Below, in pieces: positions 27,001 through 30,000 of a stretch of DNA of 64,000 nt. How positions within the stretch are numbered: position 1 is the stretch's first letter; every line of letters starts with the position of its first letter. This DNA comes from Escherichia coli (GTDB taxonomy: Bacteria; Pseudomonadota; Gammaproteobacteria; Enterobacterales; Enterobacteriaceae), in the NCBI RefSeq assembly GCF_045037415.1, contig NZ_CP173438.1; one strand, 5' to 3'. Made by a program: the position numbers.

Positions 27001-30000
27001 AAAAATTCAGCTAATCACTGAAGGATTAAAAGGAATTTATCATTTTAATTTATTGTTATTGCTACCCATTGCCATTGTCCTGTACGGTTCGATTACCAAG
27101 AAACCAACCATTCCAATTATGCTTGTTTCGGCACTGGTAGCCATGATCAACGCCAGCGTTATTCAGGGGTTCGCACTACACGACATTGTTAAAAGTGCAG
27201 TAGACGGATTTAACGTTTCAATGCTTACCGATAAAGATGTTAATCCGCTATTAGGTAATTTGTTAAACCGCGGTGGCATGAACTCGATGATGAGTACGTT
27301 GCTTATTTGTTTCTGCGCCCTTTCATTTGCGGGAACATTAGCCTTGAGCGGCGCTTTAGAAGTCATCGTCCATAATCTGCTCAAATTAGTTCATTCCACA
27401 GGAACCATGATTCTTGCGACTATTGCCTGTGGTTTAACAATGATTAGCGTGACCTGTAATGGTCAGATATCAATCCTGATTCCGATTGAAATGCTACGAA
27501 GTGCTTATATTGAGCGCGGCCTACATCCAAAAAATCTGGCAAGGACTGTAGAAGACTCTGCCACCATATTTGAACCAATTCTGCCCTGGACTGCCGCGGG
27601 TGCCTACATGGCAGGTACACTTGGCGTTGCTACATTAAGCTATCTTCCGTGGGCTATTCTCTGCTGGAGTGGCATTTTCTTTGCGACGCTGTGGGGGTTC
27701 ACAGGCTTTGGTATCGCTCGACTGTCCAAAGAAAAGCAGCAACAGCTCATGATGGAAACCATAAATGAAAGCAAATAGAATCGGCCTGATTAATATATTT
27801 GATAGTAATTAACCACGTCTACACGCCGCCCCCGATTGCGGCGTGATGTCTGTTACTCTCGCTTCAGCCGTTTGGAATTGCACAACCACAGGGTGATCAC
27901 CAGTAGCAGGAACGCCGCAGTACATCCATAGACGCTTTATGATCGACGAGGATTAATCACACAACCGTGGTGATCCCGATATAGACAATAGTCACCGAAT
28001 TTCAGGCCAGCGAACTTAAGACGGGGTTTATCTTTGGAATCGGAGGAGTCTTGAGATTCAGCAAGGTGGCCTTTGAATTCATGTTCCTACTGATCGAACC
28101 CAGTGCTGACGAGTCAGTACAGATTTTTATTGACGTTGATTGTCGGTAAGGATAGCCGTTGCAGTTAATCGTTCAGGTAAATGTTTATTCGACAAAGCAT
28201 TGAACTGCCCGTTGACGGACTTCGGGGGAAAAAAGTGTTTTTTTAGTCATCCTGTTTGCCTCTTTCTCAGGGAGTTTAGTCTCCAGGATTTCTGGAGCGG
28301 TTAACTTACAATTATCTGTTCACTAATGACTACTCTAAAAAGTTGTATCAATTTAAGTGATAGTCTTAATACTAGTTTTTAGACTAGTCATTGGAGAACA
28401 GATGATTGATGTCTTAGGACCGGAGAAACGCAGACGGCGTACTACACAGGAAAAGATCGCTATTGTTCAGCAGAGCTTTGAACCGGGAATGACGGTCTCC
28501 CTTGTTGCCCGGCAACATGATGTAGCAGCCAGTTACTTCTCTGGCGCAAGCAATACCAGGAGGGAAGTCTTACTGCGGTGACTGCTGGGGAACAGATCGT
28601 TCCTGCCTCTGAACTTGCTGCAGCCATAAGGCAGATTAAAGAACGCCAGCGCCTGCCCGGAACAAAACGATGGAAAATGAACTCATTAAAGAAGCCGTTG
28701 AATATGGACATGCAAAAAGTGGATAGCGCACGCTCCCTTATTGCCGGGGTGATGCACTGGGCGGTCACTACCGGCGGCTTCAACAGTGAAACAGTACAGG
28801 ACGTCATGCCAGGAGCGGTGGAACGCCGCTTCGGCAACGAGCTTCCGGCGTCTCCAGTGGAGTGGCTGACAGATAATGGTTCATGCTACCGGGCTAATGA
28901 AACACGCCAGTTCGCTCGGATGTTGGGACTTGAATCGAAGAACACGGCGGTGCGGAGTCCGGAGAGTAACAGAATAGCAGAGAGCTTCGTGAAAACGATA
29001 AAGCGTGACTACATCGTTTTCATGCCCAAGCCAGACCCTGTACACGATTCTGTGTGAAACAACGGGGAGCAGGTCATCGCTTCCCAACCCGTTATTTCAG
29101 CGTGCCGAACTGTTTGTCTTTCAGTGCATATAGTCGGCCGAACTCAGCATAGGGCTCTCCCGTTTCAGCCGCGTGCCGGGTTTTAGCATCCAGAAGGTCG
29201 GGTAAAGGGATCCTATGATTCAGTGAGTGGTAAAGATCATAACCACTGACACAGATAACCCGCTTCCCTTTACCAAAAGCCGTCAGGCCTTCAGGCGTAA
29301 ACCCCATCCAACTGATAAAAACACCGCGTGTCCAGGTTGCCTTGGTACTGAGCTTTCCTTCAAATACATGGAGGTCGGCAGCCGACGTTCTTTTCTGATG
29401 CCACTTTGCCTCCATCAGGTAAAATTCATCATTCAGTCGGAAACTTCCGTCAATCTGTTCGCCTGTATTTCGGAAAGACGAACGAGGAGCAAGCTTAAAG
29501 ATACTGAACAGTTCAGCAAGCCAGGCTTCAAACCGAAAACCACGTGGATGTGGCGGCAGAGATTTCATCTCGTTCATTTCAGCGATAAGTGAATGCCAGT
29601 CAACACCATGCCATGCCTGGACAGGCTTAACGCCTTTGGCTTCATCGGTGTCAGCGTTTTCTAAGCGGGAAATCAGTGCAAGATAGTCATTACGGCTTTG
29701 TTCAGCCTGTTCAGGCATGGATTCCGTTTTATACTGCCAGAGCGCACCAAGAACCCGCAGAGCGGTTCTCACGATCAACCTGTTTCAGCAAGCATCTAAC
29801 TCGTTTGGCTTTTGACGTCCCCTCTTTCTGATAACGTTCATCATCAATATCAATGTTCAATTCTTCATCGAAAAAAGCAGACAAGGTGCGGTTAGAGAAA
29901 TCCAGTATCCAGCCAGGATCGCTCTCGAACACAATATTAAACAGCCTCAAATCCTGCATTTTAAGTTTCACGCCTACCTCCTTTTTTCACAGTATAACGG

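Follow-up and report, generated by a model that had tools for sequence, protein, structure and literature searches.

Insertion-sequence debris between a MalY/PatB-NhaC block and an Mrr-like endonuclease gene in a mosaic genomic island of Escherichia coli

Three pieces of debris at one locus

The locus described here lies in a stretch of 64,000 nucleotides of Escherichia coli contig NZ_CP173438.1 (assembly GCF_045037415.1), hereafter the window, and belongs to a mosaic genomic island that ends beside cadC in phylogroup-B2-type E. coli. To its left is a block with an IS629-like insertion sequence (IS), the genes for MalY/PatB (C-S lyase) and NhaC, and remnants of a psiE and a porin gene, and to its right a block with an Mrr-like restriction endonuclease gene and Gp2 genes. 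In between, at positions 28202–29036, lie three pieces of IS debris, bounded or interrupted by five junctions (J1 to J5, from left to right), namely a stub of an IS629-like element, a short inverted piece of a diverged IS2-like element and a relic of IS2 (Table 1). The region is very probably non-functional, a scar formed in several steps at the seam of the two blocks. None of the pieces is able to move or to encode a transposase, nothing points to a function, and the debris is a known kind of feature, ordinary genome scar tissue. Truncated IS copies are the scar tissue expected at module boundaries of mosaic pathogenicity islands, and RefSeq, annotated with the Prokaryotic Genome Annotation Pipeline (PGAP), already flags the IS2 part (28402–29036) in identical genomes as a frameshifted, incomplete “transposase” pseudogene. 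Since the same 1051 bp recur at no less than 99% identity in about 253–261 complete E. coli genomes, the debris is not an assembly artefact.

The initial annotation of the stretch had reported nested IS debris at 28201–29060, limits that proved nearly exact. It had described an IS3-family left end of ~100 bp abutting an IS2 relic that lacks its outer ends and carries internal deletions, and both relics are real, the first being a 95% copy of 24634–24734 in an IS629-like element (blastn E 1e-42) and the second being borne out by alignment to IS2A of K-12. The two do not abut, however: a 47–56-bp piece of a third, diverged IS2-like element, overlooked at the time, sits between them at 28307–28362 in the opposite orientation. 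All three pieces are fragments, rather than the intact but different elements that had been named as the alternative, and “nested”, in the sense of one IS within another, is a plausible term for the IS629-like tip beside the IS2-like piece.

Table 1. Features at and around the seam, in window coordinates.
Feature	Position	Strand	Basis
Full-length IS629-like element, 1312 bp	23427–24738	–	orfA/orfB; PGAP: IS3 family transposase, programmed frameshift
PsiE pseudogene fragment	27853–27986	–	PGAP
Backbone left of J1: porin (PhoE-like) pseudogene fragment (27988–28104) and unassigned sequence	27988–28201	–	PGAP; identical sequence in W4 and THO-003
IS629-like left-end stub, 105 bp	28202–28306	–	Repeat search; blastn against the full copy
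Diverged IS2-like relic fragment	28307–28362	–	Equals IS2 ~100 down to ~44, with a 12-bp deletion
Imperfect palindrome, 100 nt	28309–28408		Head-to-head IS2-like and IS2 left-end pieces
J3, shared 9–12-bp stretch (ATT)TAAGTGATA	28351–28362		Overlapping alignment ends
IS2 relic part 1 (IS2 44–449), orfA remnant	28354–28754	+	blastn 91% (91.2%), E 4e-163
J4, 437-bp internal deletion (IS2 450–886), 2-bp TG overlap	28753–28754		Alignment to K-12 IS2A
IS2 relic part 2 (IS2 887–~1170), middle and C-terminal orfB integrase core	28753–29036	+	blastn 96% (95.8%), E 9e-133
J5, deletion of 846 bp (against AR_0015) or 851 bp (against CP015085), 2-bp GA overlap	29034–29040		Comparison

The IS629-like stub is best understood from the full copy of the window, whose closest known system is the IS629/IS1203 group (IS3 family): Stx-phage elements annotated as IS629 match it at 95.4% over 1310 bp. 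The copy carries the Rfam ALIL frameshift pseudoknot at 24285–24401 (117.6 bits) and ends in the terminal repeats TGAACCGCCCC. The stub is related to the left end of this copy, with 28202–28302 matching at 95% and a single gap extending the match to 28306 (95%/94% to 24634–24739). It retains the outer terminal inverted repeat, a 56-nt leader and the first 49 nt of orfA (codons 1–16; ATG at 28250–28248). By sequence identity it is thus IS629-like, while of the two terminal repeats, the orfA/orfB genes and the ALIL structure, the last of which occurs in the window only in the full copy, it keeps one repeat, altered by substitutions (TTAACCGCTCC in place of TGAACCGCCCC), and 16 codons. Its tip lies at 28306, and its inner break, J1, at 28201|28202, an identical breakpoint being found in strain W4.

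The largest piece is collinear with IS2 (IS3 family, IS2 group) in the same reading frames over two intervals, as aligned with blastn to the 1331-bp IS2A of K-12 (NC_000913.3 381260–382590). Its identity is of the level expected for a member of IS2, about 90% or more over the alignable length, and the parts that are absent from the window are IS2 1–43/52, 450–886 and about 1170–1331, so that both terminal inverted repeats are gone, although the left and right repeats (IRL and IRR) are kept in the orthologue of strains A31 and AR_0015. Part 1 is further damaged by four small indels: a deletion of 4 bp, which shifts the frame after codon ~42, and three changes of 1 bp, of which two are deletions and one is an insertion. 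The deletion at J4 (junction 30-mer CCCTTATTGCCGGGGTGATGCACTGGGCGG, identical in A31, AR_0015 and CP015085) takes out the frameshift region and the 5' part of orfB, and the Pfam profiles are correspondingly partial, HTH_Tnp_1 being covered at positions 2–38 of 75 only, and rve at 46–102 of 102 only with 31.5 bits, under its cutoff of 32.6. Neither intact orfA and orfB nor a complete rve/DDE core is therefore present. The target-site duplication of IS2 is 5 bp long; none is clear around the IS2 relic of A31 when looked for by eye, and in the window both ends are deleted.

The differences between the relic and canonical IS2 are not random in orfA, where 18 are synonymous and 11 non-synonymous (random expectation 23% synonymous; P 8e-6), whereas the orfB part has no synonymous excess (4 synonymous, 8 non-synonymous). 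Because the divergence of orfA is mostly synonymous, the relic descends from a divergent, once functional IS2 variant and not from a canonical copy. No intact IS2 copy closer than about 94% to the relic was found among complete E. coli genomes.

The third piece, between the other two, is 84% identical at 28309–28351 to the reverse complement of IS2 56–98 (blastn E 2e-8). A much closer relative is an IS2-like relic in CP4-44 of K-12, to which 28309–28362 is identical at 54 of 54 positions, the 12-bp deletion included (K-12 locus L004 1501–1554), and in strain KSC64 the match, at 97.7%, is part of a longer sequence, an IS2-like left end of 216 bp that possesses a terminal repeat of its own. This longer relic is 83% identical to IS2 and occurs in 2340 of the 5426 complete E. 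coli genomes, mostly in one copy and near cobU; ISEc36, more distant than IS2 at 73.5%, was ruled out as the source of the piece in the window. In K-12 and KSC64 the relic is about 190–216 bp long with a recognisable terminal repeat, whereas the window keeps ~50 bp of it, cut by the IS629-like tip on one side and by the junction with the IS2 relic on the other. Its K-12 and cobU alleles share with the window not only the sequence but also the inverse orientation relative to an adjacent forward IS2-type left end. The K-12 relic (~190 bp; NC_000913.3 ~2070474–2070786; L004 1388–1575) is unannotated, has yoeA fragment 2 on one side and the yeeP pseudogene on the other, and stands head-to-head with IS2F at a distance of 200 bp.

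The head-to-head arrangement in the window gives rise to the imperfect palindrome of Table 1, and the stretch at J3, whose AR_0015 allele is ATTTAAGTGATA, is common to the inverted IS2-like piece and the forward IS2 relic since it is a palindromic arm of the IS2-type left end. As the arms form a 100-nt palindrome and the inverted one matches the reverse complement of IS2 56–98, one may ask whether 28309–28351 is a snap-back (hairpin) duplication of the IS2 relic's own left end. This is extremely improbable: complementarity between the arm and its neighbour reaches only 84%, whereas the arm is identical over 54 of 54 positions, deletion included, to a longer relic in K-12 and 97.7% identical to the KSC64 relic that has its own terminal repeat, and on these figures the duplication was discarded. 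Also rejected was an origin of the 5' part of the IS2 relic from a canonical IS2 lying beside an IS2-like relic, as IS2F does, by homologous recombination, because the window shares variants specific to the relic (28419, 28443, 28461 and 28488) with AR_0015 and A31. The palindrome folds as DNA with –24.4 kcal/mol (z –6.3) and is regarded as a by-product of the junction, to which nothing assigns a function.

Distribution of the junctions among E. coli genomes

The right block was found in 445 genomes, in many of them without the left block. In A31, AR_0015, O157:H7 strains and others it is accompanied by the same dead IS2 but not by the left block, and copies of the AR_0015 type are also present in avian and other strains. 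The order in A31 and AR_0015 is H-NS-family gene, IS2 relic, spacer, IS256-family fragment, backbone, Mrr-like endonuclease and Gp2 genes; their relic is 96.5% (A31) and 97.5% (AR_0015) identical to that of the window, with identical J4 and indels, and the right-hand genes are ~97% identical. The locus of this type differs from the window in having both ends of the relic and the H-NS-family gene as left neighbour. The losses of the window amount to 43–52 bp at the left end and ~846 bp at the right; as a relic cannot regain its ends, the form in the window is the derived one. The divergence of the relic from AR_0015 (2.5%) tracks that of its flanks (2.7%), which indicates that the relic has long been part of the right block and was dead before the island lineages split. 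AR_0015 and A31 (L008/L005) share 10 substitutions clustered in 123 bp (equivalent to 28363–28485 of the window), where the window has the bases of canonical IS2 throughout; this cluster could have arisen by local hypermutation or by patchy gene conversion.

An intermediate form, with J1 to J4 and without J5, was detected with a chimeric query that joined the left junctions of the window to the right end of AR_0015. It is present at 100% coverage in 42 genomes, for example CP015085 (NZ_CP015085.1) and several O25b:H4-ST131 strains. CP015085 is collinear with the window at 99.3% over 23427–29035 and then has 851 extra bp with the IS2 right end, the spacer and an IS256-family fragment carrying an open reading frame (ORF) that PGAP calls EAST1. 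Because these 42 genomes have J1 to J4 and yet keep the IS2 right end, J5 was the last event. The form of the window, with J5, is that of about 253–261 genomes including UTI89, whose relic has no differences from that of the window, and ST131 strains. The junctions J1 to J5 are clean lineage-diagnostic markers, which distinguish an AR_0015/O157 type, the 42-genome intermediate and a UTI89/ST131 type.

The EAST1-bearing IS256-family fragment lies at 7087–7679 of the CP015085 locus (L015), where PGAP names the product “EAST1 family heat-stable enterotoxin”, and is missing at window position 29036|29037. IS1414 embeds astA, and an EAST1 ORF within an IS256-family fragment is consistent with that. 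The last deletion thus cost the lineage the fragment that bears the EAST1 (astA-like) ORF in the intermediate form, and the ORF is lost from islands of the window and UTI89 type.

The left flank (27780–28201) joined to the stub at J1 was found in 336 genomes. W4 has the same stub and inner breakpoint, followed by unrelated sequence internal to ISEc21, and the right block is absent. Moreover, the succession of IS629-like element, MalY/PatB, NhaC and PsiE' occurs on 41 plasmid records, where it ends in ISEc38; an example is p140_MLI109 (NZ_CP117007.1; locus L013 1164–5207), and identity is ~98% across large plasmids. Judged by these occurrences, the MalY/PatB-NhaC block is a mobile module common to plasmids and chromosomal islands. 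The remnants of PsiE' and of the PhoE-like porin between nhaC and the stub are chromosomal-gene remnants carried with it.

Since the two blocks occur independently of each other, the debris marks the join of blocks with separate histories, which its breakpoints document. The initial annotation had read the debris as a recombination scar between modules, and the occurrence of each block without the other supports it; the seam was also rightly placed between the C-S lyase/NhaC block and a nuclease-like gene, now recognised as that for the Mrr-like restriction endonuclease.

A proposed order of events

These comparisons are consistent with a history in four steps. The first was the death of the IS2 variant, located upstream of an IS256-family fragment and the Mrr-like endonuclease gene, by the 4-bp frameshift, the small indels and the 437-bp deletion, as identical lesions in widely separated genomes show. 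In the second, in one lineage, the first 43–52 bp of IS2 and the sequence to their left, which in the AR_0015/A31 form is an H-NS-family gene, would have been replaced. The break falls within (ATT)TAAGTGATA, the 9–12 bp in which the IS2 relic and the head-to-head fragment of an older IS2-like relic are identical. The junction sequence itself is observed, and its origin would be a deletion or an illegitimate recombination at this microhomology. In the third, the IS2-like piece came to end at the IS629-like tip, presumably through an insertion of the IS629-like element or a rearrangement mediated by its end, and this element would have been cut to 105 bp by a deletion that fused it to the porin pseudogene ending the MalY/PatB-NhaC block. 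The resulting breakpoint is observed and common to W4. In the fourth, a deletion at a 2-bp overlap removed 846–851 bp, that is, IS2 ~1170–1331, a ~130-bp spacer and the IS256-family fragment, giving the form of the window; its position in the order follows from the 42 genomes that carry the products of the other three steps without it. From their overlaps of 12, 2 and 2 bp, J3, J4 and J5 look like microhomology-associated deletions.

The junction J2, at which the IS629-like tip meets the IS2-like piece (30-mer GGAGCGGTTAACTTACAATTATCTGTTCAC), admits more than one origin: it could be due to insertion, to an IS-end-mediated rearrangement, or to homologous recombination between IS copies. A related alternative to the four-step history is transposition of the left block, as a composite-transposon-like unit flanked by IS629, into the IS2-like relic, which would make J2 a true transposition junction. 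Such a unit would consist of the full copy (23427–24738), the cargo malY/patB-nhaC-psiE'-phoE' and a second direct copy, now the stub. Indeed, a cargo of 3.46 kb (24739–28201) is bracketed by two IS629-like sequences in the same orientation, the left copy is joined to it by a junction that plasmids and chromosomes have in common, and at its outer end the stub is complete up to the tip, where foreign DNA follows immediately. Nevertheless, what would have to serve as the right-hand IS is a stub of 105 bp whose outer repeat has substitutions and which is only 95% identical to the full copy, the cargo on plasmids stops at PsiE' and is followed there by ISEc38, not by the stub, there is no target-site duplication (GAA precedes 23427 and CTT follows 28306), and homologous recombination between IS copies would give the same picture. 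Movement of the left block as a composite unit is therefore considered rather unlikely.

Several observations weigh against the stepwise scar as well. The missing target-site duplication just mentioned counts against it too, and CTT follows the IS629-like tip both in the window and in W4, in front of unrelated sequences, for which reason J2 may be located 3 bp outside the tip and may be something other than a simple insertion. No genome with the arrangement immediately preceding J3 or J1 was found; in K-12 and AH19D088 the IS2-like relic is confined to the cobU locus. The element names are based on identity to annotated copies, and the mechanism at every junction is inferred from end-states only. 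AH19D088, tried as a pre-junction intermediate, was excluded, its sequence being the cobU locus with another IS inserted and not the island.

Possible function and neighbouring features

It is most unlikely that the debris keeps a function, either as a 59–74-aa InsA N-terminal remnant that acts as an IS2 trans-repressor, or through the palindrome as a regulatory or recombination element for the endonuclease gene. In favour are an undamaged stretch of ~42 codons at the start of orfA, which has a partial match to HTH_Tnp_1, the mostly synonymous substitutions of orfA given above, and the 100% conservation of the arrangement in about 250 genomes. On the other hand, the excess of synonymous changes is accounted for by the relic's descent from an IS2 variant that was functional until it was inactivated, the 10 extra substitutions of AR_0015 and A31 fall in exactly this 5' region, contrary to constraint, and the conservation reflects clonal relatedness (ST131/ST95). 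The left end of IS2 carries its promoter, and in the relic this end is deleted, while the endonuclease gene downstream is itself frameshifted in the window. That the palindrome (28309–28408) and the 59–74-codon InsA N-terminal ORF together form a domesticated remnant, as an IS2 repressor or a structured element for the Mrr-like gene, is hardly credible; if true, it would explain their retention in about 250 genomes of extraintestinal pathogenic E. coli (ExPEC). Promoter-like sites (2 against 1.3 ± 1.1 in shuffles) were not above the shuffled sequences, terminator-like sites (3 against 1.3 ± 1.2 in shuffles) were close to expectation, and an Rfam scan returned only ALIL in the full IS629-like copy, the palindrome giving a chance sub-threshold match to a miRNA family.

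To the right of the debris, the endonuclease gene with its Mrr_cat domain occupies 29092–29971 on the minus strand, and an extra T at 29766 splits it into ORFs of 228 aa and 80 aa. The 1-bp insertion is relative to THO-003 and most genomes; strain 446 shares it, and there PGAP marks the gene as frameshifted. Compared with the window, strain 446 shows 0 mismatches and 2 small gaps over the first 32 kb, and identity in the second half is 99.3%; the two were accordingly not equated, and the cutD frameshift of strain 446 was not carried over to the window. The island end adjoins cadC-cadBA, which, from the gene order of K-12, is presumably the pheU side. The ExPEC islands at pheU have been catalogued (PMC7545054). 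No tRNA was found in the window.

To the left, the full IS629-like copy at 23427–24738 has no target-site duplication in its flanks (GAA at 23424–23426, ACT at 24739–24741), and its absence suggests that this copy, too, marks a site of recombination instead of a plain insertion. At 9234–9611 there is an incomplete IS629-like right end, inverted with respect to 23427–23808 of the full copy. In the CP015085 locus (L015), the full IS copy directly adjoins the side with the drug/metabolite transporter (DMT) gene (window 10792–9184, reversed). The segment 9612–23426 (13.8 kb), with choline-utilisation genes cutC/cutD and the bacterial microcompartment (BMC) shell, appears inverted in CP015085 between the IS629-like repeats, as judged from one of the two junctions. 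Within this segment, three tandem repeats of ~272 bp at 19867–20733 (79–84% identity, ~297 bp spacing) are three adjacent paralogous genes for BMC-domain shell proteins of the microcompartment cluster.

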